Shown here piece after piece: positions 28,527 through 48,548 of a DNA stretch of 64,000 nt. The notes beneath the pieces were generated by a model. The model did not search any database. It was not told the origin of the DNA and saw only the letters and a program-made list of their open reading frames with translations. How positions within the stretch are numbered: position 1 is the stretch's first letter; every line of letters starts with the position of its first letter. A program made the translations under genes and the position numbers. This DNA comes from an uncultured Desulfospira sp. GTDB lineage: Bacteria; Desulfobacterota; Desulfobacteria; Desulfobacterales; Desulfobacteraceae. Location: NCBI GenBank assembly GCA_963663165.1, contig OY760175.1:256001-320000 (forward strand), read 5' to 3'.

Positions 28527-28797
28527 TTAAGGGTTTACCCTTTCCCCCTTGACGCCTTTGCCGGGGTGCGTTAAAAAAACAGTGGTCTATTCCTTATTGT
28601 ATATGCGGAATGGGTTTTGGTTTCCTTATTATGACTGTCCGGGGTATATTTATAATATAAGTCAGCCGGCCAGGTCAAACACAAATGACGCTATACCGGC
28701 AATGGTTTTTACTCAAGGAAATCAACAGACAGATAGCCGTATCTTGCCCCGCTCTTTCAAGATAAGGAGTAAAATTTGAGTGTTTTCCCTGGTGCAT

Positions 28798-28900
28798 TTA
28801 TATGAAAGTCTCACTAACGTCCTGAGAAGACTTTCAATATTTGTTGTGGACGGTGCTTGGTTGGATAATCCAAGCCGTCCGTGACGGTTATATGGAAAGC
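28798..28900 (+). repeat. 90-bp double-hairpin repeat (full unit plus start of a second)
   Basis: TTATATGAAAGTCTCA...GACTTTC...TTGGTTGGATAATCCAA...GTGACGG, then TTATATGGAAAG again 90 bp after the first start. Confidence 0.88.
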
Positions 28901-29431
28901 CTTTTTGGGGCGCACCCTTGGGGACGGTGGGCATTAGACCGGAACAGCCGGTTTAAAATGTGTTTTTTAATCTTTTTTTCGTACATTAGAAAAAAATCGG
29001 CCGCCCAAGCAAAAAACTTTAAGAGGGTAGTAAAATGCGGTTGTCGTTGTTCGTAATATTCTGAAATATATGAATAATATTGTATTTAGAGCGGGGCTTA
29101 TTTCCCCTCGTTATCCAGAAATAAGACAGGGGGCAGACGGAAAGATTGACAAATTTGCAAAAAAAAACCTTGAATTGTAATGAATAATCAGATAGTTAAG
29201 ATACAAAACAATCAACTATGTGTTTTAATGGGTTTTTGGGTTCTAAGTAGTCAAAAAAATATCGTGTTCCCGTCTATATCGGTCTACATACAGTATCGGC
29301 AGGGTGAGGTGCATTCCCCATTGGAGATGCTTTGAGAATTTCCTGCCATGGGGGACCACATTAACTGGGGGTTTAAAGTTACTGCACACACGCCTTGTGC
29401 AGGTATGGGATAATGTAAGGAGATTATACTG

Positions 29432-30829
29432 ATGCGTTCTAAAATATTGTTAAACATAGCTGTCCTGCTGGTGTGCTGTATCGTTATCGGATGTGTGGGG
29501 ACGAGCCAGAAGGCTGAAAACGTGGCCCCTGAACCGGCAGCGGCGGAAGAATCCCACAGTTCTTTCCATAAATCGCAGCTGCACGACTGCGAGCCCGTTG
29601 ACACCACCGGTTATGTTAAAAAAGTTGACAATTTTATGCTGATATTTGATCCTTCGGCTTCAATGACACAGACGGTAACGGCATCCCGGTCATGCATGTC
29701 CTGCCATACGGCTTACCAGGACCAGAAATTTGCGGAAGACCATGCGGTTCAGTATGGCGGCCGGGAATTTGAAAAGAAAGGGGTCCTGAAACTGTTTACC
29801 GGCCGGCAGAAAGAGGAAATTACTGAACAGGACCGGGTCAATCGCTGCTGTGAATGCCACCAGGACGCCCTTTCAAACAAACTGGAGTTCGGCCGGAGCC
29901 TGGCCGCCTGCATGAATGACAGCATCCCTGATTTTGACTACAACAGTGCCCTGAGAACCTTTGGATATCCCGTGTATACGCAACTTGGCAACGGGCCCAA
30001 GCCTTACGACCGTGACGAATACGGCCATGTCATAAGGAAACTGTTCGAAGCGGACGGGGCAAGCCCGCTGTGGGTCACCCTCCGGGCGGCGGGCCGGGAC
30101 TGGTATGCCCATAAGGGAAAGATTGCCGTCATCATCATCAGCGACGGCATGGATATGGGAGAAAAAGAGGTGCTGGGCGCAGAAGAACTAAAGCTTCGCT
30201 ACCGGGATGATATCTGCATTTATACAGTGCAGATCGGGTATGATGTAAAGGGGGGCGAGATCCTGAAAAGAATTGCCGATGCCGGCCGGTGCGGAACGTT
30301 TTTTACCGGGCAGGACCTTAACTCCAAAGACGGTATGGAAAATTTTGTGCGCGAGGTGTTTCTTGAACCGGCACCGACTATGGCCGGCGACAGTGACGGT
30401 GACGGGGTCCCCGATGATATGGATGACTGCCCGGATACCGAGCCCGGCGTACCGGTGGATGACCGGGGCTGCTGGAAACTGTCGGTCATTGCCGATGTCC
30501 TGTTCGACTTTGACAAGTACGTGCTTCGCCCTGAAGGCAAAAAGGTCCTTAACAAAGTGGCGGCCCTGATGAACAAACATCCATACCTTAACCTGCACTT
30601 AAGCGGCCATACCGATAACTACGGCAGCATGAAGTACAATATCAAGCTGTCTAAAAACAGAACCCTGGCCGGGTTCACCTATTTGAAAAAACAGGGGATA
30701 GACCCTGAGAGAATATCGTTGAGCTGGCATTCTTTCTCCATTCCGGTGGCAACCAATGAAACAGATGAAGGACGGCAGCTCAACCGGAGGCTTGAGTTTA
30801 AATTTACAAAAGTTAGGGAAAACAAATAG
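29432..30829 (+). CDS. Lipoprotein with vWA-like domain (containing two CxxCH motifs), TSP3-type Ca-binding repeat and C-terminal OmpA peptidoglycan-binding domain
   Basis: Lipobox VIGC; FMLIFDPSASM and IIISDG (vWA); CMSCH (aa 88) and CCECH (aa 139); DSDGDGVPDDMDDCP; VLFDFDK, GHTD, N..LS..R, NRRLE. Confidence 0.9.
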   Translation: MRSKILLNIAVLLVCCIVIGCVGTSQKAENVAPEPAAAEESHSSFHKSQLHDCEPVDTTGYVKKVDNFMLIFDPSASMTQTVTASRSCMSCHTAYQDQKFAEDHAVQYGGREFEKKGVLKLFTGRQKEEITEQDRVNRCCECHQDALSNKLEFGRSLAACMNDSIPDFDYNSALRTFGYPVYTQLGNGPKPYDRDEYGHVIRKLFEADGASPLWVTLRAAGRDWYAHKGKIAVIIISDGMDMGEKEVLGAEELKLRYRDDICIYTVQIGYDVKGGEILKRIADAGRCGTFFTGQDLNSKDGMENFVREVFLEPAPTMAGDSDGDGVPDDMDDCPDTEPGVPVDDRGCWKLSVIADVLFDFDKYVLRPEGKKVLNKVAALMNKHPYLNLHLSGHTDNYGSMKYNIKLSKNRTLAGFTYLKKQGIDPERISLSWHSFSIPVATNETDEGRQLNRRLEFKFTKVRENK

Positions 30830-30838
30830 GAAAAATCT

Positions 30839-31873
30839 ATGAAACGTGCAACTGTAAGTTTACTCTTTGTTTTTTTCCTGTCTGCATGCGGCTCGCCTGA
30901 AGTCAGCATACAAAAGGACGTTATTTACAACCGGCCCATGCCCAAGTACGAGTTTGAGTATGAGCTTGGGCCCGGCGACGTTATGGAAATTGTTTACCAC
31001 TATACCCCGCGCCCGGATACCAACGAGTATTATCTGGCCGTTGGCGATGTGGTCCGGGTTGAATTTGCCTTTCACCCGGAAGTCAACCGGAACGTTACGG
31101 TGACGCCGGACGGCAATGTGTCCATGCCCCAGCGCGGGGATGTCAAGGCCCTGGGCCTGACCCCGACCCAGCTTCAAAAAAAGCTGACCGAGCTGTACAG
31201 TGACGACTTTATTGATCCGGTCATCACCATCACCATGGTGGAATACAACCGGACCATTGACCATCTCAAACGGGCCATCACCACTGCGGCCCGCGGGCAG
31301 AGCAAGCTGACCACCATCCGCCCGGACGGATATATTTCCTTTCCGGTTATCCGGGATGTATATGCCAAAGGCAAGACCCTTCCCGAGTTAAAGGAAATTG
31401 TCCAGAGGGAATATTCACAACAGGTGGACAACCTGACCGTGACCCTGATCCTCAAAGAGGTCCATGCCAACCTGGTCTATATTATGGGCGAAATCGGAAC
31501 CCCCGGTTATTTTCTAATGGAACATCCCTATACGGTCAGCCAGTTGGCGGCCAGGGCCGGCGGCCTTTTGAACACCGCGGAACGAAGCTCTATTCTGGTG
31601 ATCACCAGAGATAAGGAAAGGCGGCCCTGGGGCCGGATCGTTAATTTGAAAAAGGTGGTTGAGGATGGTGATATGAGCCAGGACATTGTACTGAACCAGT
31701 ACGATGTGGTGTATGTGCCAAAATCAAAAATTGCCAGGGCAAATCTGTTTGTTGAACAATACATCAACAACATGATACCATCCAATCTCATCGGCCCCTA
31801 TGACATGGGTGGCACATTGTTGAATACCCGTCCCCTTATTAACGACGGTATCGGCAATACGAATATGCCTTAA
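30839..31873 (+). CDS. wza: Polysaccharide export lipoprotein (OPX/Wza family), copy 1
   Basis: Lipobox LSAC; YELGPGD, LAVGD, PDG..S.P twice, VYIMGE, L...DVVYVP. Confidence 0.88.
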   Translation: MKRATVSLLFVFFLSACGSPEVSIQKDVIYNRPMPKYEFEYELGPGDVMEIVYHYTPRPDTNEYYLAVGDVVRVEFAFHPEVNRNVTVTPDGNVSMPQRGDVKALGLTPTQLQKKLTELYSDDFIDPVITITMVEYNRTIDHLKRAITTAARGQSKLTTIRPDGYISFPVIRDVYAKGKTLPELKEIVQREYSQQVDNLTVTLILKEVHANLVYIMGEIGTPGYFLMEHPYTVSQLAARAGGLLNTAERSSILVITRDKERRPWGRIVNLKKVVEDGDMSQDIVLNQYDVVYVPKSKIARANLFVEQYINNMIPSNLIGPYDMGGTLLNTRPLINDGIGNTNMP

Positions 31874-31944
31874 AGGCAGCATTATTAAACATGAAGCAGG
31901 CATTCCTCGGCAGGAACAGCAAATTTCTGAAAGGTGAGTGTGAA

Positions 31945-32030
31945 GAGACTTCAGATATTAGACTTTAGATTTTGAAATCGGCTGAAAGGCACCCCAAGTC
32001 TCAAGTCCCAAGTCTCAAGTCTTATATCTA
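31945..32030. repeat. Inverted heptamer arrays (imperfect hairpin) between wza1 and co-polymerase 1
   Basis: GAGACTT CAGATAT TAGACTT TAGATTT ... AAGTCTC AAGTCCC AAGTCTC AAGTCTT ATATCTA. Confidence 0.75.
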
Positions 32031-32054
32031 AAAAATCAGGAGCCTTTAACTCGT

Positions 32055-33518
32055 ATGGCGATTACAAAATTAGAATCATCCAAAGATTATCTTCGCATCT
32101 GGTTTCTCTGGAAACGGCAGGCCATCATTGTGTTTTGGGTTATTGTTCTTTTGGTGATGGCGTATGCCTATACGGCCAAATCCGTGTATGAGAGCAATGC
32201 CGAACTGCTGGTCATGCCCAAAACCAGGGAAGGAGAAGTGATCAGTGCCGGTGAAGATGAGCGACGGGTGGTGCCGATTACGGAAAATGACATTTATACG
32301 GAAATTGAAATTCTAACCAGCCATTCGGTTCTGGCCAATACGGTGAAATCCCTTAATGATGAACAGTCCAGTCTTTCAGATTCCAAAAAGTCCATTGTCT
32401 CTTTGGTCCTGACCCCTATCAAGATGACGGGCAGCGTGATTTTAAGGGCACTTCACCTGACCACCGATCAAAGTTCTGAGTTGGAAAAAAAGGTGTCCAA
32501 GCTAAAAGACTCACTGGTCATCAGCCCGGTGATTGATTCTAATATCATCACCATTGCTCTCCATGGAGAGGTGCCAAGAAACACCTATACCATCCTTCAA
32601 ACACTTCTGGACAAATACTTTGAGCATCGAAGCCGGGTGTTTTCCCAAAGGGAAGGAATGCATTTTTTCAATGACCAGGCCACGGATTTTAGAACAAGGC
32701 TTCAAGAGGCGGAAAGAAAGCTGAAGTCTTTTGAGTTCTCCCAAAATATTGTTAATTTCGGCGAGCAGATATTTACCGAGATTGAACTGCTCGCAAAGCT
32801 GACCGAAGAGTTAAAAATGCTCGAGGTGAGCTATGCTCAAAACTGTGCCCGGATATCCATGCTCCGGTTGAAGATGAGTGCGGACACCACCCGGGTATAT
32901 CTGACCCGTGATATGCGCCGGATTCCGGCTATTCTGGAACTTGAAAAAGGGCTGGTCCCGGTCCTCATTGAAAGAAGCGGTATCAGCGGCGGATTTACGA
33001 AGGGAAGCCGGGAATTTAAAATCATTGACCAGCAGATCGATATGCTCAGAAGTGAAATCCGGTTTGAAGTTGAAAAGGCCATCCGGACGGAAGAACTTGA
33101 AATTGAGAGCATGCGCATCAAAATTTTGAGCCTCAAAGAAAAAATTGCCCAGCTTCGGTCCAATGTCTGTGAACTCAATCAAAAAGGGCGCACCCATCAG
33201 GACCTGACACGGAAGGTGTCGCTTTACAGAAAAAACTTTTCCCTTTACGAAAACAAGGCTGAAGAGTCCAAGGTGTTTAACCGGAAAAGCGAAAGAAGGC
33301 TTGCCAATGTCAGTGTGTCATCAGAGCCTACCCTGCTCCAGAAGCCCATTGCACCCAAACGGGGCTCGCTTCTCTTGCTGGCCCTTGTTTCGGGCATTGG
33401 CGCTGCGTTAGCCCTTCCTTTTCTTCTTGAAGTGATTGACAATAAATTGAAATCCGCCGACGACGTGGAAGCGCTGGTTAAGCTGCCGGTAATATGCAGC
33501 TTTAACGATATCAAATAA
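32055..33518 (+). CDS. Polysaccharide co-polymerase (Wzz/GumC-like, Wzc membrane part), copy 1
   Basis: Two TM segments flanking a long coiled coil; YESNAELLV, TEIEILTS, PIAPKR, DVEALVKLPV. Confidence 0.9.
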   Translation: MAITKLESSKDYLRIWFLWKRQAIIVFWVIVLLVMAYAYTAKSVYESNAELLVMPKTREGEVISAGEDERRVVPITENDIYTEIEILTSHSVLANTVKSLNDEQSSLSDSKKSIVSLVLTPIKMTGSVILRALHLTTDQSSELEKKVSKLKDSLVISPVIDSNIITIALHGEVPRNTYTILQTLLDKYFEHRSRVFSQREGMHFFNDQATDFRTRLQEAERKLKSFEFSQNIVNFGEQIFTEIELLAKLTEELKMLEVSYAQNCARISMLRLKMSADTTRVYLTRDMRRIPAILELEKGLVPVLIERSGISGGFTKGSREFKIIDQQIDMLRSEIRFEVEKAIRTEELEIESMRIKILSLKEKIAQLRSNVCELNQKGRTHQDLTRKVSLYRKNFSLYENKAEESKVFNRKSERRLANVSVSSEPTLLQKPIAPKRGSLLLLALVSGIGAALALPFLLEVIDNKLKSADDVEALVKLPVICSFNDIK

Positions 33519-33557
33519 CCGTCAAAGAGCAATTTCTAAATCTCAATGGAGTGGACA

Positions 33558-34277
33558 ATGTTCAAAAGGACAAAAACGCAGGACGAACCGCCGAAACCAG
33601 TCATTACCGACCCGAAGCCCCGTTCTGGAAATTGGAACTTCTTTGATCTGCGGAACCGGAAACAGAGCGGAGACCTTGAAAAGAAAATCTATAATTTAAA
33701 AACGGAAAGCCAGCGAAAGGTATTTAATTTTGTGAGCAGCAGACGCCAGGAAGGGGTCACCACTGTCCTGGCCAATTTTCTGCAATACCTGCGTGAACAG
33801 GGCAGTGAAAAAAAGATCCTTATTATTGACGCCAATTTCCTGGTGCCCGGCCTGCACCGGGTGTTTAACAAAAAACTTTCCGCAGGCCTTGCCGATGTGC
33901 TGGCAGGGGGCATTCAGATTCATGAGGCCGTTATCAGCCTCAATGTGTTGAACATGAGCTTGTTAACCTGCGGCCAGGATTACAAGCGAATGGCGGGAAA
34001 CATCAGCCTGGAGCGGTTCAGCGAGGTGATTGAAGAGGCCAAAAAAGGGTTTGACTATGTGTTTATTGATTCCTCTCCGCTGCTGATTTCATCAGATGCC
34101 ATTTCAACGGCCATTGCTGCGGATGTGACCCTTCTGGTGATCCAGGCCCTCAAAGTACAGCGGGAAGTCGCCAGGCGCTCAAAAAGCCTTTTGACGGACA
34201 ATGCCTGTGAGATCGGCGGCGTTATTTTAAACAGAGTCCCCCAGGTGATTCCTTCCTGGGTTTACCGGATGATATGA
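33558..34277 (+). CDS. CpsD/CapB-like BY-kinase homolog with degenerate Walker A, copy 1
   Basis: SSRRQEGVTT, LIIDAN, GLADVL, YVFIDSSP, GVILNR; no Tyr-cluster tail. Start placed after the GGAG RBS. Confidence 0.85.
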   Translation: MFKRTKTQDEPPKPVITDPKPRSGNWNFFDLRNRKQSGDLEKKIYNLKTESQRKVFNFVSSRRQEGVTTVLANFLQYLREQGSEKKILIIDANFLVPGLHRVFNKKLSAGLADVLAGGIQIHEAVISLNVLNMSLLTCGQDYKRMAGNISLERFSEVIEEAKKGFDYVFIDSSPLLISSDAISTAIAADVTLLVIQALKVQREVARRSKSLLTDNACEIGGVILNRVPQVIPSWVYRMI

Positions 34278-35368
34278 ACCAGGGCAGAACCATGCTTGCG
34301 ATACTTAAGGAAACTCAAAAATGCGCACTGTTTGGCCTGATAGTGGTTTTTTTGTTTTCCTGTGCCGGCCCCAAGGTTGAGATCACATCGGATGTTATTT
34401 ATAACCGTCCCATGCCCAAAGGCGAGTTTGACTATGAGCTGGGACCCGGGGATATTCTGGAAGTCGTTTACCACTACACCCCGCGTCCGGACACCACAGA
34501 GTACCACCTGGCCGTGGGGGATGTGGTCCGGGTTGAATTTGCCTTTCATCCGGAAATCAACCGGGACTTAAAGGTAACGCCGGACGGCAACATTGCCATG
34601 CCCCAGAAAGGAGATGTCAAGGCCCTTGGGCTGACACCCACCCAGCTGAGAACAAAAATTACAGATCTTTACGCCAAAGAGTTTATTGAACCCGTGGTCA
34701 CCATTACCATGATTGAGTACAACAAGGCGGTGGAACACCTTAAAGTGGCCATTACCACAGCAGACCGCGGACAAAGCAAGCTGACCACCATACGGCCGGA
34801 CGGATATGTGTCTTTCCCGGTGATCAGGGATATCTTTGCCCGGGGAAAAACCGTCCCGGAGCTAAAGGAAATTGTCCAGGGGGAGTATTCCAAAGAGGTG
34901 GAGAACCTGACCATCACCCTGATTTTGAAAGTGATGAAATCCAATCTGGTGTTTGTCATGGGGGAAGTGAATGCCCCGGGCTACTATCTGATGGAACATC
35001 CCTATACCGTCAGCCAGCTGACCGCCCGGGCCGGGGGGCTTGCCAACACAGCTGAACCCAGCAGTGTTCTGGTCATCAGCCGGGATAAACAGCGCAAACC
35101 CTGGGGCCGGATCATCAATTTGAGAAAAGTGTTATCCATGGGGGACATCAGTCAGGACGTACTGCTCAACCAATATGACGTGGTGGTGGTGCCCAAATCC
35201 AAAATTGCAAGGGCAAACCTTTTTGTGGAGCAGTATATCAATAACATGATTCCATCAAATCTTGTCGGTGCGTATGATATGGGCGGCACGGGGCTGAACA
35301 CCCGTCCCATTATCAATGACGGTTATGGAGACGCAACCGCAGCACCCACGGCAGGGGATGAAGAATAA
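34274..35368 (+). CDS. wza: Polysaccharide export lipoprotein (OPX/Wza family), copy 2
   Basis: Lipobox LFSC; colinear paralog of 30839-31873; ATGA overlap with the preceding gene. Confidence 0.88.
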   Translation: MNQGRTMLAILKETQKCALFGLIVVFLFSCAGPKVEITSDVIYNRPMPKGEFDYELGPGDILEVVYHYTPRPDTTEYHLAVGDVVRVEFAFHPEINRDLKVTPDGNIAMPQKGDVKALGLTPTQLRTKITDLYAKEFIEPVVTITMIEYNKAVEHLKVAITTADRGQSKLTTIRPDGYVSFPVIRDIFARGKTVPELKEIVQGEYSKEVENLTITLILKVMKSNLVFVMGEVNAPGYYLMEHPYTVSQLTARAGGLANTAEPSSVLVISRDKQRKPWGRIINLRKVLSMGDISQDVLLNQYDVVVVPKSKIARANLFVEQYINNMIPSNLVGAYDMGGTGLNTRPIINDGYGDATAAPTAGDEE

Positions 35369-35410
35369 AGGGCTGTAAATAACTTATCCAATAAAAGAGA
35401 TATTACTGGT

Positions 35411-36874
35411 ATGGCAATTACAAAATTACAATCCTCAAAAGATTATCTTCGCATCTGGTTTCTCTGGAAACGGCAGGCATTAATTGTTTTCGGGCTTATT
35501 ATCGTTTTGGTGATGGGATATGCTTATTCCGCCAAGTCGGTATATGAAAGCAATGCCGAACTGCTGGTCATGCCCAAAACCAGAGAAGGCGAGGTGATTA
35601 CCACCGGTGATGATCAGCGAAGAGTTGTGCCGGTCACTGAAAATGATATCTATACGGAAATTGAATTGATCAGCAGCCAGTCGGTACTTGCCGGTACCGT
35701 CCAGTCCCTTGAAGCGGATAAGGCCAACCTGATCGATCCCAAAAAATCTATTTTTTCTCTGATTCTGATGCCGGCCAAAAAGGTCATTAATGCTGTTTTG
35801 GGCATGTTTAAACTATCCTCCGACCCGGGCACAGAACTTGAACAAAAAGTGGCGGATTTAAGAGATGCGTTGAATATTTCCCCTGTCATTGAGTCCCACA
35901 TTATTGAGATCGCCCTTCATGGTGAGATTCCCCAAAATACCCTTGTCGTTCTTGAAAAACTGCTTGAAAATTACTTTCTGCACAGATCCAAGGTGTTTGC
36001 ACAGGAAAAGGGGCTGCACTTTTTCAGTGACCAGTCCCAGGAGTTTAAAACCAAACTGGATGAGGCTGAAAAGGAATTAAAGGCTTTTGAATTAAACGAA
36101 AATATATATAACCTGGAGCAGCAGATTGCCGCCGACATTGCATTGATTGCAAAGCTTACCGATGAACTCAAGATGATTGAGATCTCCTATGCCGAAGACC
36201 GGGCCCGGATCAGCATGCTCAAGCAGGAACTGATGCAGAATCCGGATATGGTTAACCTGTCCAAGGAAATGAACGATATCCCTTCCATCCAGGAGCTTGA
36301 AAAGGGGATGGTGCCGGTCCTGATCCAGCGCAGTGCCGTCAGCGGAAGATTTTCCAAAGACAGCAGACAATTTCACAACATTGACGGCCAGATCAAAATG
36401 CTCAGAAATGAGATCCGGTATGAAGTCGAAAAAGCCCTTTACACCGATGAACTTGAGTTAGAGGCCACGGCCATTAAAATTGAGAGCCTTAAACTCAAAA
36501 TAGCGGAACTCAGATCCGATGTGAACGACCTTAACCAGAAGGGGCGTTTCCACAATGAGCTGTCAAGGAAAGTGGATATCTATAAACAGAATTTTGAACT
36601 GTATGAAAGCAAGACCGAGGATGCCAAAGTGCTCAGTCGAAAAAGCAAGCGGAAACTGGCCAATGTCAGTGTGTCATCCGAGCCGAACCTGCAAGAGCAG
36701 CCCATTGCCCCCCAGCGGGTGACGCTGCTGATGCTTGCCCTGGCCGGTGGCCTGATGGCGGCGGTTTTTCTGCCCTTTATTCTCGAATCCATTGATAATA
36801 AACTCAAATCTGCCGATGACGTGGAGGCCCTTGTTGATTTGCCGGTGGTATGCAGTTTTAACAACATAAAATAG
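35411..36874 (+). CDS. Polysaccharide co-polymerase, copy 2
   Basis: 487 aa, colinear with 32055-33518. Confidence 0.9.
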   Translation: MAITKLQSSKDYLRIWFLWKRQALIVFGLIIVLVMGYAYSAKSVYESNAELLVMPKTREGEVITTGDDQRRVVPVTENDIYTEIELISSQSVLAGTVQSLEADKANLIDPKKSIFSLILMPAKKVINAVLGMFKLSSDPGTELEQKVADLRDALNISPVIESHIIEIALHGEIPQNTLVVLEKLLENYFLHRSKVFAQEKGLHFFSDQSQEFKTKLDEAEKELKAFELNENIYNLEQQIAADIALIAKLTDELKMIEISYAEDRARISMLKQELMQNPDMVNLSKEMNDIPSIQELEKGMVPVLIQRSAVSGRFSKDSRQFHNIDGQIKMLRNEIRYEVEKALYTDELELEATAIKIESLKLKIAELRSDVNDLNQKGRFHNELSRKVDIYKQNFELYESKTEDAKVLSRKSKRKLANVSVSSEPNLQEQPIAPQRVTLLMLALAGGLMAAVFLPFILESIDNKLKSADDVEALVDLPVVCSFNNIK

Positions 36875-36880
36875 TTCCTC

Positions 36881-37059
36881 ACGGCCACGGGCCGTCTTGG
36901 TTATCCAACCAAGCACCGCCCACAACGAAAAATGAAAGTCTTTTCAGCTTGTTAGTGAGACTTTCTTATAACGGCCACGGGCCGCTTTGGTTATCCAACC
37001 AAGAGCCGCCCACAACAAATATTGAAAGAACTCAAAAGGTTGCTGAGTCTTTCATATAA
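36881..37059 (-). repeat. Two tandem 90-bp double-hairpin repeat units (reverse orientation)
   Basis: ACGGCCACGGGCCG..TTGGTTATCCAACCAAG..CCGCCCACAAC at 36881 and 36971; the reverse complement matches the 17518 and 28798 copies. Confidence 0.9.
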
Positions 37060-37141
37060 AAAAAGTAAAGGGGAGGGCGGGCGCAAGGTTTAAAGAGTTA
37101 AGCATTTCAAGGATGGCGGATGAAAACCGGAGGGTGAGTCT

Positions 37142-37819
37142 ATGCAAAAGCAAGGCAGTTCAAACGCTTTGGGGTGGCATTTTTTTGACTTAAAAAACCG
37201 AAAACAAAGCGGGGACCTTGAAAAAAAAGTATTCCATCTTTTCTCCAGAGACGCTTGTAAAGCCTTTAACTTTGTGAGCAGCAGAAGAAAAGAGGGGGTG
37301 ACCACTGTCCTTGCCAATCTTGTCCAGTATGTCAGAGAACAGCGCAGCGGTAAAAAACTGCTGGTTATTGATGCCAATTTTGTAGCGCCGAGGCTGCACC
37401 ATGTATTTGGCCTCAAGCCCGATACCGGCCTTGCTGAAGTCCTGGCCGGCAACGCGACCCTTAATGAAGCCCTGGTGATTTTGCCTGAAGCCAACATGGC
37501 GTTGCTGCAAAGTGGAAAAACTTACCGGTCCATGACCGGGGATATCAGCCTGGAGCGGTTTCAGGCTGTGATCACCGAGGCAAAAGACAAGTTTGATTAT
37601 ATTTTTGTTGATTCTCCGCCTTTGCTGGCATCATCTTCGGCTGTTTCCACCGCGGTTTCGTCTGATGCCACCTTTTTGATCCTCCAGGCACTCAAGGTAC
37701 AGCGGGAAGTGGCCATGCGGTCTAAAAACCTCTTGGTGGAGAACAACTGCATGATCGGCGGTGTGGTATTAAACAGGGTCCCCCAGGTGATTCCTTCCTG
37801 GGTGTACCGGATTATCTGA
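37142..37819 (+). CDS. CpsD/CapB-like BY-kinase homolog with degenerate Walker A, copy 2
   Basis: SSRRKEGVTT, LVIDAN, YIFVDSPP, ends IPSWVYRII. Confidence 0.85.
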   Translation: MQKQGSSNALGWHFFDLKNRKQSGDLEKKVFHLFSRDACKAFNFVSSRRKEGVTTVLANLVQYVREQRSGKKLLVIDANFVAPRLHHVFGLKPDTGLAEVLAGNATLNEALVILPEANMALLQSGKTYRSMTGDISLERFQAVITEAKDKFDYIFVDSPPLLASSSAVSTAVSSDATFLILQALKVQREVAMRSKNLLVENNCMIGGVVLNRVPQVIPSWVYRII

Positions 37820-37878: not shown

Positions 37879-39168
37879 ATGATCGCTTTATTACTCCCCA
37901 TAGCCGTCTTCCTTTTTCTTCTGTTTATCTGCTCTGTTTTCAAACCCAAATACGGGCTTTACCTGCTGGTGTTTATCCGGCCTATTATCGACAACCAGGC
38001 CTTGTACATCACGGAAAAGTTCCCGGGGCTTCCCTTCAATTATTTACAGACAGTGGGGGTTATTGTCCCCGTTATCCTGTTGTTTTCTTTAATGCTTAAA
38101 AAACTGGATGCCGCCAAGGCAAAGGTCCTGTTTTTTGACCAGAGAATTGCCAATTATTATGCGCTGTTTCTGCTGGCCGGCATTCCCGCAGTGGTGCTGG
38201 CCAGTGAGACGGTCCTCATGGTCGGGGACTGGCTCAAATACTTTACCCTGTGGACAATCCTGATCTATGCCATCAACATCATTGAAACCCCTGAAGACCT
38301 TAAACAGCTGTTTGTTGTGATTGTCATCAGTTCGTTTTATCCCCTGCTCCAATTTGTCATCCACCAGGTGACCGGAGATCTGGTGGATGACAGAGGGCAT
38401 CTTCGGAATCTGGGGGGGTACCCCCATCAGAACGTGGCCTCCAGAACCCTGTTGGCCTTTATACCGGCATATCTGTACATGATTTTCAGGGATCAGACAG
38501 CCAAAAAAATGAAGCTGATGTTTTTAGGGCTTTTGATGTTTCTGCTGTTATGCATTTATATGACCTACTACAGGACCCTTTTGCTGGCGCTGGCCGCGCT
38601 GTTGCTGTCCTTTGCCTATTTCAGGAAATATTATTTAACCCTGGTATTGTTGTTTTTGGCCGGCGTTATGATTATTCTCAGTTCTCCTTACCTGCTGAAC
38701 AAAGTCGTGGTCCAGTCCGGGACGGTCCTGTTGAATTTTGATGAGCTGTTCAACCCGAGACCTACCCCCTATGACAGCATCCTGGCCGGCCGGTTTGCCA
38801 CATGGCGGATCCTTACCGATCATTATCTGAGGCACTCCACGGTTATTCAGATGCTGTTCGGGTTCGGGTTCAGCCTGCCCACCCGTGCCGTTGAGGTGTC
38901 GACGGCCCATAATCAGTTTATCCAGACCATCTTTCGGTCGGGAACCATAGCGGCCGTGGTTTTTTATTTCTGGCTTTTTAAAACCATGTTGTTTTCTTTA
39001 AAGAACAATACCGGGCTGATTCCAAACGTCATATCCGCCTATATCATTGGCCTTTTGTTCGCCACCTTTGCCGGAGATTTTTTCAGTGATGCCAGAACGC
39101 ACTGGTTTTTAGCCCCATATCTGGCCATTATGATCAAGTATCACCAGTTTGCCCTGGAAAAGGAATAA
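37879..39168 (+). CDS. wzy: O-antigen ligase/Wzy-type polysaccharide polymerase
   Basis: About 11 TM segments; R..GG..HQN, T..RT, GRFATW, FGFG, AHNQF...G. Confidence 0.8.
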   Translation: MIALLLPIAVFLFLLFICSVFKPKYGLYLLVFIRPIIDNQALYITEKFPGLPFNYLQTVGVIVPVILLFSLMLKKLDAAKAKVLFFDQRIANYYALFLLAGIPAVVLASETVLMVGDWLKYFTLWTILIYAINIIETPEDLKQLFVVIVISSFYPLLQFVIHQVTGDLVDDRGHLRNLGGYPHQNVASRTLLAFIPAYLYMIFRDQTAKKMKLMFLGLLMFLLLCIYMTYYRTLLLALAALLLSFAYFRKYYLTLVLLFLAGVMIILSSPYLLNKVVVQSGTVLLNFDELFNPRPTPYDSILAGRFATWRILTDHYLRHSTVIQMLFGFGFSLPTRAVEVSTAHNQFIQTIFRSGTIAAVVFYFWLFKTMLFSLKNNTGLIPNVISAYIIGLLFATFAGDFFSDARTHWFLAPYLAIMIKYHQFALEKE

Positions 39169-39173
39169 CATTC

Positions 39174-41030
39174 ATGTGCGGTATCCTTGGCGCCATTTGT
39201 TATGATGATGAGCAGCGATTTCGTGATGCCCTGGACCTGATGCATCACCGGGGGCCGGACAATACCGGTATATACCGGGCAGATCCCCATGTCCTTTTAG
39301 GGCACAAACGCCTTGCCATCATTGACCTGGATGAAAAAGCCAACCAGCCCTTTGTCGACAGCGGCGGCAAACATGTGATGGTCTTTAACGGGGAAATTTA
39401 TAATTACCTGGACATCAAAAAAGAACTCCAAGGACTCGGCGTCGTGTTTCGCACCGAATCCGACACGGAAGTCCTTTTAAAAGCCTATCTTCAATGGCAG
39501 GAAAACGCCTTTATCAAGCTGCATGGCATGTTTGCCTTTGCCATTTATGATCTGGAACAAAAAAAGATGGTCCTTGGCCGGGACCGGATGGGGGAAAAAC
39601 CCCTTTTTTATACCAAATCCGGCAACCGGTTCTTTTTCGCATCAGAGTTGAAAAGTATTTGCCGCCTGCTTTCAGACCGCCCGGTTGTTGACCTTAAGGC
39701 CCTGCTCGATTATTTGTCCTTTGGGTATGTCCCCACCCCCAAGACCATTTATTCGGGTATCCGAAAATTAGAGCCCGGGTCATATTTAAATATTGATGTC
39801 AAAACCCTTGAAACGGCCCAAAAACCCTACTATACCGCCCGGTTTGAAAACAGCATAAAGGACCCGGTACAGGCCGCCGAGATGTTTGATCAGATTTTGT
39901 CCGATGTCTCAAAAGAAATCACATTGTCAGATGTGGGGTATGGGGTGTTTCTAAGCGGCGGGGTCGATTCCAGCGGGGTTGCCGCTTACATCAGCCGGAA
40001 CAACAGCCGTGTCAACGCCTACACCATTGGATTCAATGACGCCCAATTTGATGAATCCCCTTATGCAACGCAGGTGGCCCGCCATCTTGACTTAACCCAT
40101 CATATCCTCACCTTGGATGCCGACAACCTCATTGACATCTATGAACAGATGGTTGACCTGTATGATGAGCCGTTCAATGATTTCAGCTTTATCCCCAGCT
40201 ACTTTGTTGCCCACCAGGCCAGGCAGTTTCAAAAGGTGATTGTTTCCGGGGACGGGGCAGATGAAATCTTTTCAGGCTATCAAAAATATCCGCGCCTTAA
40301 ACGGCTCACTGCCGTGTATCCGTTCAGGCCGGTTTGCAAGATGGCCGGGGCCTTGTCCATGCTGCTGCCGGAATCATCCGATTATAAGCGGCAGTTACAC
40401 CGGGTCGGGCTGTCACAAACCGAGCTGTTATTTGATATGATGGCCATTGTGTATAAGCGCCGGGAGCTTGCTAAAATTCTGGGGCCTGCCTTAAAACCCG
40501 TACACCTTCAATATTCTTCCGGCACCATTATCGAAAACCACATCAATGATTTGCCGGCAGACACGTCGCTGCTGCAAAAGCTACGGTATCTGGATGTTAA
40601 AATGCGACTGGTGGATGCCATGCTGGTCAAGGTTGACCGGGCATCCATGGCCAACTCCCTTGAAGTCAGGGCATTTTATCTGCACCCCAGGATAACGGAT
40701 TTTTCCTTTCAACTGGATGATACCCTGCTGGTCAGAGATAAAACCGCCAAGTTTATTTTAAAAAAGACGCTGGAAAACCGGCTGCCCGACCCCATCCTAT
40801 ACCGACCCAAGATGGGGTTCTCAATTCCGTTGAAAAAGTGGATCACCAAAGATTTAAAGCCTGTTTTTGACGAAGCGGTCGGGAACCTGCCCGATGAGCT
40901 GTTTGATAAACAGGCCATTGATGCCGTTGTCAGGCTCCACGAAAAAAGCCAGCGTGATTTTATCTTACAGCTCCACGCCCTGATGTTTTTAGGAACCTGG
41001 CTTAAAAGACGCAACATCAGTTTTTCTTAA
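39174..41030 (+). CDS. asnB: Asparagine synthase (glutamine-hydrolysing) family amidotransferase
   Basis: MCGI, HRGPD, RLAIID, FNGEIYN, LSGGVDSS, SGDGADE, KVDRASMANSLEVR, RPKMGF. Confidence 0.94.
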   Translation: MCGILGAICYDDEQRFRDALDLMHHRGPDNTGIYRADPHVLLGHKRLAIIDLDEKANQPFVDSGGKHVMVFNGEIYNYLDIKKELQGLGVVFRTESDTEVLLKAYLQWQENAFIKLHGMFAFAIYDLEQKKMVLGRDRMGEKPLFYTKSGNRFFFASELKSICRLLSDRPVVDLKALLDYLSFGYVPTPKTIYSGIRKLEPGSYLNIDVKTLETAQKPYYTARFENSIKDPVQAAEMFDQILSDVSKEITLSDVGYGVFLSGGVDSSGVAAYISRNNSRVNAYTIGFNDAQFDESPYATQVARHLDLTHHILTLDADNLIDIYEQMVDLYDEPFNDFSFIPSYFVAHQARQFQKVIVSGDGADEIFSGYQKYPRLKRLTAVYPFRPVCKMAGALSMLLPESSDYKRQLHRVGLSQTELLFDMMAIVYKRRELAKILGPALKPVHLQYSSGTIIENHINDLPADTSLLQKLRYLDVKMRLVDAMLVKVDRASMANSLEVRAFYLHPRITDFSFQLDDTLLVRDKTAKFILKKTLENRLPDPILYRPKMGFSIPLKKWITKDLKPVFDEAVGNLPDELFDKQAIDAVVRLHEKSQRDFILQLHALMFLGTWLKRRNISFS

Positions 41031-41090
41031 CATTTGAAGAGCGACCCGCCACATATTGCCGGCCTTTCGTAAAGGCTTTTGGAGAAAAGG

Positions 41091-42053
41091 ATGAAAATTT
41101 CAGTCGTTATCCCGGCCTACAATACGGAAAAATATATTGCCAGAGCCGTCAACAGCGCCTTGAACCAGACCTTTACGCCCTTTGAGATCATTGTGGTTGA
41201 TGACGGGTCTTCCGACAATACGGCTCAGAAGGCCAAAGCCTGCGCCAAGGACGTTATTGTCATTTCCCAGCCCAACGGAGGGGTTTCAAATGCCAAAAAC
41301 ACCGGCATTGCAAAGGCCAGAGGCGACTGGATCGCTTTTCTGGATTCCGACGATGAATGGCTCAGTTACCACCTTGAACAGGCCCGCGATATTCTATCGG
41401 GCCATCCGTTTTTGCACTGGTACTTTGGACTGGACATCATCAAATCTCAGGATACGGGAAGAATCCTTTATTTTAAACCCTTAAAAGAATCGGTCCGGGA
41501 TACCCTGCTGATACAGGGCGCCTATTTTGATAATTGTTTTGAAATTGAGGCCATTCACCCCATTATGACGACAGTTTCCGCCATCGTTAAAAAATCGGTC
41601 CTTTTATCCCTTGGCGGGTTTAACGAGTCCCTTGGGAGCGGAGAAGACCGGGAATTGTGGCTTCGGATAGGGCTTTCCCATCCAAGGGTGGGATATGGCG
41701 CAAGGCTTTCCGGTATTTACTGGATTCGCGGCAATTCCATCACCAATACCGCGAGTGTAAACCGGTCTTCGATGAATGATGCGCTCAAATTCCTGTTTCA
41801 TATGGACCGGGTTTCCGGCTCAAAGGGGCCGGTGGCCAAAAAGGCGGCCGAACCGTTTATTCTCGATTGTGCCCGGCGAACCGTTGCCAGGGCCGTTAAA
41901 TTTAATGACCTTAATGCTGTTAATGATATTTTCAAAAAATACGGGTATAAACTCGGGTTCCGGTATAACCTGCTGGCGTTTTTCGGCCGGTTCATCCCGC
42001 CTTCACTGATGCCGGCAGTCAAAAAACTTAAAGATACCGTAAAACCCCGATAA
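41091..42053 (+). CDS. Glycosyltransferase family 2
   Basis: ISVVIPAYN, VVDDGSSD, AFLDSDD, GEDRELW. Confidence 0.93.
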   Translation: MKISVVIPAYNTEKYIARAVNSALNQTFTPFEIIVVDDGSSDNTAQKAKACAKDVIVISQPNGGVSNAKNTGIAKARGDWIAFLDSDDEWLSYHLEQARDILSGHPFLHWYFGLDIIKSQDTGRILYFKPLKESVRDTLLIQGAYFDNCFEIEAIHPIMTTVSAIVKKSVLLSLGGFNESLGSGEDRELWLRIGLSHPRVGYGARLSGIYWIRGNSITNTASVNRSSMNDALKFLFHMDRVSGSKGPVAKKAAEPFILDCARRTVARAVKFNDLNAVNDIFKKYGYKLGFRYNLLAFFGRFIPPSLMPAVKKLKDTVKPR

Positions 42054-42070
42054 CAGGTGAACAAACGTAA

Positions 42071-43603
42071 ATGATCAGCATCGACGATGCCAAAAAACGG
42101 CTGGTACTCAACACCATCTCCAATATCCTCAACGTCGGTGTAACGTCACTGATTCTGTTGTGGCTGACCCCTTTTCTGGTCCGGCAGCTGGGCGTGGATG
42201 TCTACGGCATGTATCCCCTGGTCGCCGATATAGCCCTTTACATCATGATTTTATCCGGCAACTATACAACGGCGTTCAGCCGGTTTATCTCCCTTGCCAT
42301 TGAAAAAAACGATATGGCATCCGGGCGGACCTATTTTTCCACGGCCGTGGTGTCGCTTTTCGGCATCAATATGGTGGTGCTCATCCTGGTATTGGGCGCC
42401 GCCTTTTTCCTGTCCAGCCTGATCCATATCCCTTCCGGCGCCCAAACCGATACCGCTGTTTTCTTTGTGCTGATGATTGCCTCAGGCCTTGTGGATACCT
42501 TTGCAAGTCCCCTGTGGGTTTCCACCTTTGTGACCCATAAACTTTATGTTCAGAACATATCCGTGGTGATCAGCCGGATCGGGCAGCTTCTGGCCATTCT
42601 GGTGTTGTTTTATCTGTTTGACGCATCATTGACCATTGTGGGCGTCAGCCGGTTTGGCATGTTTTGTTTCCAGTTTATCATGGCCCTGATGTTTACGAGG
42701 ATGTTCCTGCCAGACCTGACCCTTAAGATCAAAGCCTTTTCCTGGCCGGCATTCAAGGAAATGGGGAAAATGAGTTACTGGATCACCATTGACACCATTG
42801 GCAGCCTTTTCTACCTTCAGTCAGACCTGATCATCATCAACCTGATCACCCATTCCGGGATGGTGGGCCTTTATGCGGTGGTGGTTCAGTGGGTCTTGTT
42901 TTTACGGACCCTGACACCGGCCATCAGCAATGCCTTTTCACCCATTGTGATTGATTTTATCGCAGAAAATAAGATGCCTGACCTGGCCTTTCATACCAGG
43001 CGAGCCATTAAATTCATGGGCATGATTCTGGCCTTGCCCATTGGCCTTTTGACCGGCCTTTCCACCCCTTTGCTGGTGGTATGGCTGGACCCGTCATTTG
43101 CCCATCTGGGTCCCTTGATGAAGCTGGTGGTTTTCCCCCAGATTATCTTTCTGGCCATCAACCCCCTTTATTTCATCAACCGGGGGTTGAACAAGGTTAA
43201 AATCCCGGCACTGGTCACCTTTGCCGGCGGGATCCTGAACGTCATCTTTTCCGCCGGCCTGCTCAAGTACAGCAGCTGGGGGCTTTATGCCGTGGCCGTG
43301 GCCACGGTTCTGGCATTTATGCTCAGAAGCATTGCCTTTACGCCCATCTACACCGCCGGGCTGCTCAACCAGAAGCGGTATTATTTCTTAATGCCGGTGA
43401 TCCCCGGGGTTATTCTGGCATCTCTGGTTGCGGCGGCGGCCTTTGGCATGGCATCAACGTTTGCCATAACGTCCTGGTGGCATCTGATAGCCGCAGGCCT
43501 GGTCATGACGGTTATTTACGTTCCGGTTTGCTTTTTAACCGTATTAAGAGGGGATGAAAAACGATTTTTGATCTCTCTTGTGGGAAAAAAGTTCAGCCGG
43601 TAA
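42071..43603 (+). CDS. wzx: Wzx-type oligosaccharide flippase (MOP superfamily)
   Basis: About 14 TM segments; TPFLVRQLG..YG, DLIII, VGLYAV. Confidence 0.88.
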   Translation: MISIDDAKKRLVLNTISNILNVGVTSLILLWLTPFLVRQLGVDVYGMYPLVADIALYIMILSGNYTTAFSRFISLAIEKNDMASGRTYFSTAVVSLFGINMVVLILVLGAAFFLSSLIHIPSGAQTDTAVFFVLMIASGLVDTFASPLWVSTFVTHKLYVQNISVVISRIGQLLAILVLFYLFDASLTIVGVSRFGMFCFQFIMALMFTRMFLPDLTLKIKAFSWPAFKEMGKMSYWITIDTIGSLFYLQSDLIIINLITHSGMVGLYAVVVQWVLFLRTLTPAISNAFSPIVIDFIAENKMPDLAFHTRRAIKFMGMILALPIGLLTGLSTPLLVVWLDPSFAHLGPLMKLVVFPQIIFLAINPLYFINRGLNKVKIPALVTFAGGILNVIFSAGLLKYSSWGLYAVAVATVLAFMLRSIAFTPIYTAGLLNQKRYYFLMPVIPGVILASLVAAAAFGMASTFAITSWWHLIAAGLVMTVIYVPVCFLTVLRGDEKRFLISLVGKKFSR

Positions 43604-46738: not shown

Positions 46739-47422
46739 TTAGTCACCCCTCTGAATCACTTCAAAAGTTCTTAACCAGTCATTAAAAAGAGGACATTCGT
46801 TTCGAATTTTTTCGATACCGATTTCTTTGGCGATGGTCACCCCCATCGTTGTTTTCAGAAACTTCCCATTGATTGACCAGGCATCCAGGCGTTTGGAAGG
46901 AGCTGTCTGGGGATTATTATTGATTGCTTCTGGAGAGCCACATTCAGATATGACCGTTGCAACTGTAGATTCATCTATGCCCAGTTGCCTGGCAAGAATC
47001 CCGGCATCACTGAAAAGCAGTGCCTCAAATTCATGCACGGCTACGAAAGGTATAAATCGGCGTTCTGCCTGTTGTTCTGAAAAAAGCGAGATAACATGAT
47101 TTTTGGTCGCCTCATTCACCGTTTTGGCAATCTGTGAAGGATGCGCTTGCTCTGGTACTAAATCAAATCCTGGCCATTCTTTAGTCCCGTAATAATCGAT
47201 AAATGTCGTAACATAGGTATCAGGCCGTTGTTTTAAATGCAATTCCAGGTCCCTTTTGACACGGGAAAAACGAACATCACCACCCTTTTGTCCTGGCTTG
47301 GATACTTGAGTCGCACGTATCCCTATGTTTTTATAACCGATATACGGTGCTAAGATACTCTCAATGAAAATCTGCTCGGTCTTGCCTTCCACGATGGCGA
47401 TCACTTCAATGTAATTACTCAT
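46739..47422 (-). CDS. DUF4276 family protein (TOPRIM-like)
   Basis: IVEGKTEQ, TTFIDYYG, HEFEALLFSD, PEAINN..TAPSKRL, IR.ECP.F..W. Confidence 0.88.
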   Translation of the reverse strand: MSNYIEVIAIVEGKTEQIFIESILAPYIGYKNIGIRATQVSKPGQKGGDVRFSRVKRDLELHLKQRPDTYVTTFIDYYGTKEWPGFDLVPEQAHPSQIAKTVNEATKNHVISLFSEQQAERRFIPFVAVHEFEALLFSDAGILARQLGIDESTVATVISECGSPEAINNNPQTAPSKRLDAWSINGKFLKTTMGVTIAKEIGIEKIRNECPLFNDWLRTFEVIQRGD

Positions 47423-48548
47423 AAATCGGCCCTCCTGGAATAACGTTCTTTGACCAGAGTTCGCCTACTGAGTAATCTTCCAACCATGCTGAAAAGTCCT
47501 TTTCCTTCAGCCGTTTGAAAGTTGAAGCACCATCTTCACGGTTCACAACTATCGTATCTTCAATGCCAAATTGATCAATAAGTGCAGGAGATTGGGTTGC
47601 CACAATGACCTGGGTCTGTTTTGAGGCTACCTGAATTAGTTCACCAAGCACTACAATCGCCGCCGGATGCAGGCCCAGTTCCGGTTCATCTATAATAATC
47701 GTGGAAGGTGGATTCGGTTGTAATAATGCCGTGGCAAGACAGATAAAGCGAATAGAACCGTCCGATAGATGATAGGGCTGCATTGGAAAGTTCGACCCTT
47801 TCTGACGCCAACTAAGCCGGACTTTTTCCGCCTCACCAAGTTTGTGTACATCCAACTGGAAATCATCAAAGAAAGGTGTGACCATGCGGATGGCAGCAAC
47901 AATTCTCTTATAATAATCAGAATAGAATTCCTCATTTTTAAGGTGAAAGATGAACGGGGCAATATTTGCAGCATCTCCCCTTAGTTTATGATAGTCTTCA
48001 ACGATCTCTGAGCGTCGCATGGGAGATGACGCACTGGTATCATGAAAGTGGTAGACCATCCAATTGGAAATGGATTCATAAACGAAATGTCCTACTCCGT
48101 TCCACTGACCGTCCCTTGATTTTTCATTGCGCTCATCGTACAACCGGCTTTCTTTTGATGGACTTCCGTAAGAACGCCATTCTGTTGTGACATACTTTCG
48201 TTCTTCATTTATAAGAAAATTTTCATCGGCGGTTGGTGTGAGCTCAAACCGGTATGAATTAGAGCCCTTCGCATTACTACTGTGGGATGTAAAATCAAAC
48301 CCCATCTCAATTTTTGAGGTCACCTTTGGCCCTTCAAAAAGAAAATTATCTGCTCCTCCACGCTCAAGAATAAATTTGCTGAAATTCTTCTGCGTCATTG
48401 CCATCAACATACGAAAAATCTGAACAAAATTACTTTTTCCGGCGCCATTTGCACCAATAATTACATTGAGGTCACCCAGTTTGAATTCATTGACTTCCTT
48501 AATGGATTTGAATCCCTTAACTGTCAGTTTCTCTAAAGCACCTCTCAT
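47415..48548 (-). CDS. ABC/AAA_21-type ATPase
   Basis: GFKSI, Walker A GANGAGKS, YHFHDT, signature LSDGS, Walker B IIIDEPELGLHP, ATQS; overlaps the DUF4276 gene. Confidence 0.92.
   Translation of the reverse strand: MRGALEKLTVKGFKSIKEVNEFKLGDLNVIIGANGAGKSNFVQIFRMLMAMTQKNFSKFILERGGADNFLFEGPKVTSKIEMGFDFTSHSSNAKGSNSYRFELTPTADENFLINEERKYVTTEWRSYGSPSKESRLYDERNEKSRDGQWNGVGHFVYESISNWMVYHFHDTSASSPMRRSEIVEDYHKLRGDAANIAPFIFHLKNEEFYSDYYKRIVAAIRMVTPFFDDFQLDVHKLGEAEKVRLSWRQKGSNFPMQPYHLSDGSIRFICLATALLQPNPPSTIIIDEPELGLHPAAIVVLGELIQVASKQTQVIVATQSPALIDQFGIEDTIVVNREDGASTFKRLKEKDFSAWLEDYSVGELWSKNVIPGGPIYE

Follow-up and report, generated by a model that had tools for sequence, protein, structure and literature searches.

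A vWA-OmpA lipoprotein with a conserved two-CxxCH insertion, a candidate diheme protein, at the head of a Wza-type polysaccharide export cluster in an uncultured Desulfospira sp.

Why should a lipoprotein encoded at the head of a polysaccharide export cluster carry two CxxCH motifs, the attachment signal of c-type heme in exported proteins, beside the metal site of a von Willebrand factor A (vWA) domain? The question is raised by an open reading frame (ORF) at positions 29432..30829 (+) of a 64,000-nucleotide stretch of DNA from an uncultured Desulfospira sp. (contig OY760175.1, positions 256,001 to 320,000), referred to here, in its full length, as the window. The ORF encodes 465 amino acids; its ATG start codon follows a Shine-Dalgarno sequence, AAGGAG, and its TAG stop codon occupies 30827-30829. 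Judged from sequence comparison, its product is most likely a diheme, exporter-associated variant of the vWA-OmpA lipoproteins, and this variant is real, conserved, narrow in distribution and apparently undescribed, with a plausible role in redox processes.

The two-CxxCH insertion in the vWA domain

A search with residues 1-345 recovered 113 relatives, 36 of which were aligned. In this alignment the close relatives carry 55-85 extra residues directly after DxSxSM of the MIDAS (metal ion-dependent adhesion site), whereas in other vWA-TSP3-OmpA lipoproteins the MIDAS loop runs straight into helix alpha1 without an insert. An earlier, sequence-only reading of this DNA had placed the CxxCH-bearing stretch right after the MIDAS of a vWA-OmpA lipoprotein, and the alignment identifies that stretch as an insertion of about 70 residues. 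Both motifs, CMSCH (29693-29707) and CCECH (29846-29860), lie exactly where that reading had put them. Among 256 relatives fetched, exactly two CxxCH motifs occur in 45, one in none, and none at all in 211; plain vWA/OmpA lipoproteins normally lack the motif, and 0/211 insert-less relatives carry one. Residue numbers below refer to the following features of the gene and its product; invariance is given for the 36-sequence alignment and for the 43 full-length aligned members of the two-CxxCH family, which are 49-94% identical to the window protein.

29432..30829 (+): whole ORF, lipoprotein with a vWA domain holding the two-CxxCH insert, a TSP3-like linker and an OmpA-like domain (from the sequence; 94% identical ortholog in locus L001)
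29432..29494 (+): putative signal peptide with lipobox V-I-G-C, C21 being the predicted lipidated cysteine (from the sequence; C21 invariant in 36/36, insert-less paralogs included)
29567..29569 (+): H46, N-terminal arm, candidate distal heme ligand (invariant in 43/43)
29648..29662 (+): MIDAS motif D73-x-S75-x-S77, where vWA strand beta1 ends (invariant in 36/36 and 43/43)
29669..29875 (+): insertion, approximately residues 80-148, between the MIDAS loop and vWA helix alpha1 (alignment, model)
29693..29707 (+): CxxCH motif 1, C88-M-S-C91-H92 (CMSCH, residues 88-92; sequence, alignments)
29741..29743 (+): H104, candidate distal heme ligand, with 11 residues between H92 and H104 (x11 spacing in 50/50)
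29846..29860 (+): CxxCH motif 2, C139-C-E-C142-H143 (CCECH, residues 139-143; sequence, alignments)
29876..30370 (+): rest of the vWA domain, residues 149-313 (structure comparison, model confidence, invariant columns)
30383..30472 (+): TSP3-like acidic repeat DSDGDGVPDDMDDCPDT...GC, residues 318-347 (Pfam TSP_3, sub-threshold, E 0.047)
30476..30811 (+): OmpA-like peptidoglycan-binding domain, residues 349-460 (PF00691; Foldseek)

Motif 1 always begins 15 residues past the MIDAS Asp. Eight residues, H46, C88, C91, H92, H104, C139, C142 and H143, are invariant in 43/43 full-length members, and the pattern DxSxS-x10-CxxCH-x11-H-x15-70-CxxCH fits all 50 two-CxxCH proteins known to us, including later additions. 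Conservation of both motifs in close homologs, which had been proposed as a check, is therefore complete (43/43 and 50/50). A histidine at the H46 position is present in 48 of the 50, the remaining two being N-terminally truncated; insert-less paralogs have E, L, T or Q in this column. Of the extra histidines previously pointed out as possible distal ligands, H104 (within EDHA) and H46 are invariant, while H42 and H51, which share the stretch SHSSFHKSQLH with H46, are not conserved. When the mature sequence was shuffled 20000 times, 134 shuffles contained at least one CxxCH and none contained two or more; the paired motifs are thus not an effect of composition. Four cysteines, two proximal and two further histidines are, as far as sequence can tell, exactly what two bis-histidine c-type hemes require.

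The protein begins with MRSKILLNIAVLLVCCIVIG-C21, a putative lipoprotein signal that conforms to the bacterial lipobox pattern [LVI][ASTVI][GAS]C. The DPSASM sequence that precedes the insertion corresponds to residues 73-78. In the TSP3-like repeat, D320, D322, D324, G325, D331, C333, P334 and C347 are invariant in the 36-sequence alignment.

Recognition of the vWA domain was less direct. Pfam VWA models gave no match to the window protein at E <= 1, leaving the gathering threshold unreached, and at E <= 0.01 only a few of the 43 members were hit (VWA_3 in 5, VWA in 2, VWA_2 in 1). The insertion splits the domain, and insert-less paralogs carry precomputed PF00092/PF13519 matches. An AlphaFold2 model built on the 43 homologs (mean predicted local distance difference test score, pLDDT, 73.8; core residues 150-310 mostly >85; OmpA-like domain mostly 72-93) gave a clearer answer. 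Its residues 64-313 align with BatB (3ibs_A) at a VIA-align Z of 18.9 and a root-mean-square deviation (rmsd) of 2.6 over 176 residues, and in the best 50 rows, all with Z >= 16.2, nearly all names are those of vWA or integrin I-type domains. About 74 of the 250 residues in the modelled range remain unaligned to vWA structures, which is the size of the insert. Foldseek matched 4jdu at E 7e-7, and the nearest ESM Atlas clusters are VWA, with a score of 0.91. D73, S75, S77, S211 and D238 are all invariant in the 36- and 43-sequence alignments; S211 and D238 we take to be further MIDAS residues from their alignment position and the general vWA motifs. C262 and C287, in the remainder of the domain, are likewise invariant. 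The predicted structure is thus a Rossmann-like alpha/beta vWA fold with the MIDAS series DxSxS...T/S...D. The structure prediction that the sequence-only reading had called for supports its vWA assignment over residues 64-313 (Z 18.9) and leaves the insert itself at pLDDT 44-66; the assignment draws on the fold, the MIDAS residues and the alignment with paralogs that Pfam recognizes as VWA, with the Pfam vWA models missing the domain in the window protein.

BatA/BatB-type vWA domains (3ibs, 4jdu) and eukaryotic vWA and integrin I domains share this fold (Z 18.9/18.1, rmsd 2.6, 176/174 residues aligned) and the MIDAS motif with the window protein, but they are only 11-18% identical to it, are anchored to membranes in other ways and lack an OmpA-like domain. 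No heme and no insert in this position is described for any of the vWA structures among the matches listed.

At the C-terminus, PF00691 (OmpA) scores 63.1 bits against a gathering cut-off of 27.2 over residues 357-452. It is the sole Pfam domain above threshold and is above threshold in all 43 aligned members as well, in keeping with the proposal that the ORF ends in a peptidoglycan-binding OmpA domain. Foldseek relates this domain to OmpA, Pal, YiaD and YfiB structures at E 1e-8. D395 (in HTD) and R410 (in LSxxR) are invariant and may form the Asp-Arg pair that binds diaminopimelate in OmpA-like structures. Pal, YiaD and OmpA have the OmpA-like domain and lipoprotein anchoring in common with the window protein (YiaD model, 102.8 bits) but offer no counterpart to its N-terminal 345 residues; NCBIfam models of OmpA-like lipoproteins cover only residues ∼304 to 460, and all of these equivalogs remain under their cut-offs.

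The closest relatives are the uncharacterized insert-less vWA-TSP3-OmpA lipoproteins (726 representatives at E <= 1e-30), annotated only as 'OmpA family protein' and 28-45% identical over the shared parts. They have the same lipobox, a vWA domain with a DxSxS MIDAS, TSP3-like repeats and a C-terminal OmpA-like domain, and differ in that no insertion follows the MIDAS loop, no CxxCH is present and most carry more TSP3 repeats. One such paralog is encoded in the window genome itself (G000:C1:4471142-4472107), with 42% identity over residues 150-456.

Heme attachment and its alternatives

In exported proteins CxxCH is the signal for covalent attachment of heme c; the window protein has a signal peptide and two such motifs, and its insert probably binds heme. 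The genome encodes a cytochrome c maturation system of the System II type: a ResB/CcsB gene (269.9 bits) and a CcsA-type gene (197.2 bits) are neighbors at 1.543-1.545 Mb. No CcmE was detected in this genome, which is 96.7% complete. When the 43 members were scanned singly, weak, sub-threshold matches to MtrC/MtrF domain II/IV were obtained in 29, to Cytochrom_c3_2 in 13, to Cytochrome_C7 in 7 and to class III cytochromes in 1, while a cysteine-cluster family was matched in a single member. Shared with the c3, c7 and MtrC/MtrF cytochromes are the distance of 36-58 residues between CxxCH motifs and the additional histidine that goes with each motif; the difference is that the module of the window protein is inserted within another domain and matches these families below threshold only. 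For the window protein itself, the best cytochrome matches in Pfam, both sub-threshold, are P460 (E 0.0042) and CCP_MauG (E 0.02).

Several observations weigh against heme binding. None of the curated cytochrome families (c3, c7, MtrC domain, NapB, CCP) was matched above threshold, and a profile of the insert found nothing significant in the PDB, the best E being 0.34. The six weak PDB matches (E 0.34-9.2) comprise four cytochromes, one unrelated protein and one zinc finger, the C2H2 finger of ZNF346 (E 0.37), which aligns with C88-x2-C91-x12-H104. Four cysteines and four histidines also fit two Cys2His2 metal sites. In the model, residues 80-148 are predicted to be helical at pLDDT 44-66, a low confidence that applies equally to the placement of both CxxC motifs inside helices. 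Finally, one member of the clade (P0116, discussed below) keeps both CxxC pairs in the form CxxCY and CxxCR. A search for stand-alone relatives of the insert among proteins of 60-230 amino acids found none; it returned nine short proteins (76-181 amino acids), and both of the two that were inspected are pieces of the two-CxxCH family.

The phylogeny bears on how these points are to be read. Two FastTree trees were built, the first with 127 rows (45 two-motif proteins and every second of 164 insert-less proteins) and the second with 71 rows. The two-motif proteins fall together (99% local support) inside the larger insert-less family, which points to a single clade with one origin of the two-CxxCH insert and few losses. 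Three of 51 clade members have no heme motifs. In P0046 the insert is deleted; P0116 has the altered motifs just mentioned and a long branch (1.07); in P0204, on a long branch (1.75), the site holds an insert of comparable length that is rich in Pro and lacks Cys. In the nearest outgroups, P0117 and P0047, inserts are short and Cys-containing, or absent. From the variety of inserts in these five proteins it follows that the site is a hot spot of insertion, at which the heme-motif version appears to be the one under strict conservation. A search seeded with P0116 revealed no closer relative and no separate subfamily: the sequences nearest to it are two-CxxCH proteins (∼40% identity), and the search added three divergent two-CxxCH members. 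The family as a whole is narrow, with about 50 sequences found in 10/161 genomes of one family and in a few others; one ortholog, P0021, is from a strain of Desulfobacula.

These data allow a reading without heme, in which the CxxC pairs and the four histidines would make up sites for zinc or another metal, or else disulfides, by which a structural lid is fastened to the vWA domain, the CxxCH form being incidental. The residue count suited to two Cys2His2 sites, the C-x2-C-x12-H spacing shared with ZNF346, the CxxC...CxxC of P0116, the sub-threshold scores of all cytochrome families and the invariant cysteine pairs C262/C287 and C333/C347, which suggest the use of disulfides elsewhere in the protein, all speak for it. 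We nevertheless consider it unlikely. A zinc or disulfide site needs no histidine after the second cysteine, yet one is found in both motifs of 50/50 proteins; weak matches to multiheme cytochromes in 29/43 members stand against one match to a cysteine cluster; the protein is exported to the periplasm in a lineage with System II maturation; the motifs are predicted to be helical, unlike zinc knuckles, albeit with low confidence; and P0116 is a single long-branch sequence for which the seeded search found no closer relative.

Hemes could also be present merely as the structural core of an extra vWA lobe; the protein would then anchor the exporter to peptidoglycan constitutively and play no part in redox processes. 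The hydrophobic core of small multiheme cytochromes does consist of hemes, and the site tolerates a Cys-free insert (P0204), a deletion (P0046) and short forms (P0117, P0047); from such relatives, with another insert or none, it follows that the vWA fold does not need the insert. This explanation seems very improbable, given that the eight ligand residues are strictly invariant and losses are rare (3/51), two of them on long branches. Such invariance of all eight implies selection on the heme sites themselves.

Linkage to a Wza-type exporter

If the insert is taken as a diheme module, its context suggests where it may act. The lipoprotein gene is the first of a polysaccharide export cluster: its stop codon ends at 30829 and the ATG of the next gene starts at 30839, leaving the gap of 9 nt that the sequence-only reading had described. 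No terminator-like site was seen between the two genes. The gene at 30839 is assigned to the Wza, or outer membrane polysaccharide export (OPX), type because of its Poly_export and SLBB_2 domains; the remaining assignments in the cluster rest on domain and family matches.

30839..31873 (+): wza1, OPX-type polysaccharide export lipoprotein (Poly_export + SLBB_2)
32055..33518 (+): wzz1, chain-length determinant homolog (polysaccharide co-polymerase, PCP)
33546..34277 (+): bacterial tyrosine kinase (BY-kinase)-like ATPase 1
34274..37819 (+): second, tandem wza-wzz-kinase set (34274-35368, 35411-36874, 37142-37819)
37879..43603 (+): rest of the cluster, with a Wzy-like membrane protein, an AsnB-type amidotransferase, a family 2 glycosyltransferase and a Wzx-like flippase

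The occurrence of this arrangement was analyzed in a scan of 185,579 species genomes, which yielded 12 ortholog loci (L010 and L011 being halves of one contig-split gene; L013, from the same scan, is an unrelated OmpA match); a thirteenth, L060, came from a further genome search. The genes wza, wzz and a BY-kinase-like gene follow on the same strand in 11/11 loci with downstream DNA. The wza gene is directly adjacent in nine (L001, L003, L004, L006, L007, L008, L009, L012 and L060), one gene for an ExeA-like ATPase intervenes in two (L005, L010), and L002 and L011 end at a contig edge. The Wzy-like gene is also conserved across the orthologous loci. Thus the linkage with export genes that the earlier reading had named as decisive is conserved in the two-CxxCH subfamily. 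The neighbors of the insert-less paralog in the window genome are unrelated, with no Wza-like gene recognized among them (from N-terminal neighbor sequences only).

Among 161 genomes of the family to which the window belongs, the N-terminal heme-motif part occurs in 10 (6/19 genera) and this type of Wza (E <= 1e-90) in 9, all of them among the 10 lipoprotein carriers, counts that reflect a cluster travelling as a unit and no statistical association, because related genomes are not independent. In the tenth carrier 142 nt separate the lipoprotein gene from the end of its contig. When 301 genomes were sampled evenly across the order, among the matches listed only that of the window genome covers the N-terminal 140 residues, every other one starting at residue 140 or later. 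A predicted complex of Wza1 (residues 18-344) with the vWA-heme domain (residues 44-316) and two hemes scored 0.00, which speaks neither for nor against an interaction.

The two wza-wzz-kinase sets of the window (30839-34277 and 34274-37819) are tandem copies, with identities of ∼72-75% for Wza, 62-64% for Wzz and 66% for the kinase, and the stop of kinase 1 overlaps the start of wza2 by 4 nt. The duplication is shared with a genome of the same genus (L001 / G408), whereas the other orthologous loci have one set. L008 (JAOZRY010000472.1) is a 3.5-kb contig in a Bacteroidales metagenome-assembled genome, on which wza and wzz come after a heme-motif vWA gene (∼49% and 64% protein identity to the window); it may represent either a mis-binned contig or transfer outside Desulfobacterota.

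A gene for an ExeA-like ATPase lies beside the heme-motif vWA gene in 10/12 other loci, directly upstream in L002, L003, L004 (4445-6016), L006, L007, L009, L012 and L060 and between the vWA gene and wza in the remaining two (e.g. L005:7366-8988). Its best model is TIGR03015, an XrtA/PEP-CTERM-associated ATPase, with scores of 162-260 bits where the cut-off is 324.5. Since vWA proteins are often paired with AAA-type ATPases, it is a second candidate partner of the lipoprotein. It is absent from L001 and from the window locus, the latter absence counting against the reading preferred below, and paralogs elsewhere in the window genome are only 27-31% identical.

The electron-transfer chemistry of the hemes could be the whole function: they would exchange electrons with redox partners in the matrix or the outer membrane, or detoxify oxidants at the export site, and regulate nothing. 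In sulfate reducers, electron-transfer cytochromes typically have bis-histidine hemes, the weak MtrC/MtrF, c3 and c7 matches and CCP_MauG (E 0.02) fit, and the position in the operon fits equally. Even so, this seems improbable to us: two peptidoglycan-tethered hemes cannot span the periplasm, no further CxxCH ORFs exist in the 13 orthologous loci, hexacoordinate bis-histidine hemes are poor catalysts, and the placement in a ligand-binding vWA domain beside the MIDAS would be left unexplained.

The cluster also resembles XrtA/PEP-CTERM loci. Models of that system (TIGR03027, TIGR03007, TIGR03108) are the top NCBIfam matches of both Wza proteins, Wzz1 and the amidotransferase, and the second or third match of the kinases and Wzz2. 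A canonical XrtA/PEP-CTERM locus was rejected, however, because all scores fall below the cut-offs (TIGR03027 128/180, TIGR03007 92/279, TIGR03018 68/231, TIGR03108 482/817) and the exosortase genes, at 0.578, 1.447 and 5.905 Mb, lie outside the window (0.256-0.320 Mb). Among the five models compared (these four and TIGR03015), none is of a vWA-OmpA lipoprotein. Elsewhere in the genome, an exosortase gene (232 bits) lies ∼15 kb from the best ExeA-like paralog (G000:C1:577923-594217), suggesting a canonical PEP-CTERM locus at 0.578-0.594 Mb.

Further surroundings of the locus are given here as observations in their own right. A 0.9-kb non-coding spacer (28527-29431) separates the lipoprotein gene from a divergent resistance-nodulation-division (RND) efflux operon; it gave 0 matches to Rfam, and a scan for promoter and terminator consensus sequences did no better than shuffles (18 vs 11.4; 17 vs 11.8). 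The outer membrane factor of the RND operon (26142-28526 (-), 794 amino acids) has its best Pfam OEP stretch in residues 577-764 only; TolC-family models start from about residue 576, and the long N-terminal part is without a family match. A candidate defense pair of a DUF4276 protein and an AAA_21 ATPase (46739-48548 (-)) is embedded immediately downstream of the polysaccharide cluster's glycosyltransferase genes and is matched by PADLOC HEC-01B (E 6e-68) and HEC-01A (E 1e-136).

A proposed role in redox-responsive export

Taken together, the preferred reading is that the insert binds two bis-histidine c-type hemes and couples redox state or oxygen to the exporter; we give this full reading a probability of about 0.45. 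After Sec export and lipidation, heme would be attached by CcsBA at C88/C91 and C139/C142, with H92 and H143 as proximal and H46 and H104 as distal (sixth) ligands. The lipoprotein would be suspended from the outer membrane while its OmpA-like domain grips peptidoglycan, and the vWA metal site would bind a component of the exporter, the Wza-type OPX protein being the likeliest; this MIDAS-mediated contact would tether the exporter to both wall and outer membrane. Few protein-binding modules are as common as the vWA domain. Because the insert sits between the MIDAS loop and helix alpha1, whose movement accompanies the opening of integrin I domains, the redox or ligand state of the hemes would be likely to alter the binding site and so tune the contact with the partner. 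In this way periplasmic redox conditions or oxygen exposure may be coupled to the assembly or activity of the exporter.

A more specific form of this proposal, in which the MIDAS is gated by heme, a diheme redox switch opening and closing the grip on the Wza channel so that strictly anaerobic sulfate reducers would switch matrix polysaccharide export on or off when oxidants are met, is rather doubtful at present. If true, it would make the lipoprotein the first case of a vWA domain under cofactor control and the first subunit of an OPX/PCP exporter to sense redox state. Wza/Wzc-type exporters are controlled from the cytoplasmic side, through tyrosine phosphorylation. Periplasmic redox or oxygen sensors with covalent c-type heme exist in related anaerobes, such as DcrA of Desulfovibrio vulgaris and the chemotaxis-receptor domains of Geobacter; these are inner-membrane proteins with a cytoplasmic output, whereas the window protein is an outer-membrane lipoprotein without a signalling output domain.

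The architecture had not been recognized as described when the sequence was first read, and no description of vWA, OmpA or Wza combined with CxxCH or c-type heme, nor of a periplasmic redox input or cytochrome subunit of a Wza-type exporter, was found in openly searchable full texts. Likewise, no vWA domain with a redox cofactor at its metal-dependent site is reported in that literature or among the best 50 structure matches. Passages on von Willebrand domains name BatA/BatB genes beside cytochrome genes (bioRxiv 10.1101/2022.05.06.490989) or give a domain count table (PMC5244752), in neither case with a fusion described.

Should the insert bind heme, the lipoprotein would offer a small system, of about 270 residues, for cofactor control of a MIDAS site, and its constant pairing with one type of exporter makes genetic tests straightforward. 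Such heme binding would also point to a way for oxygen-sensitive sulfate reducers to couple matrix production or aggregation to redox stress.

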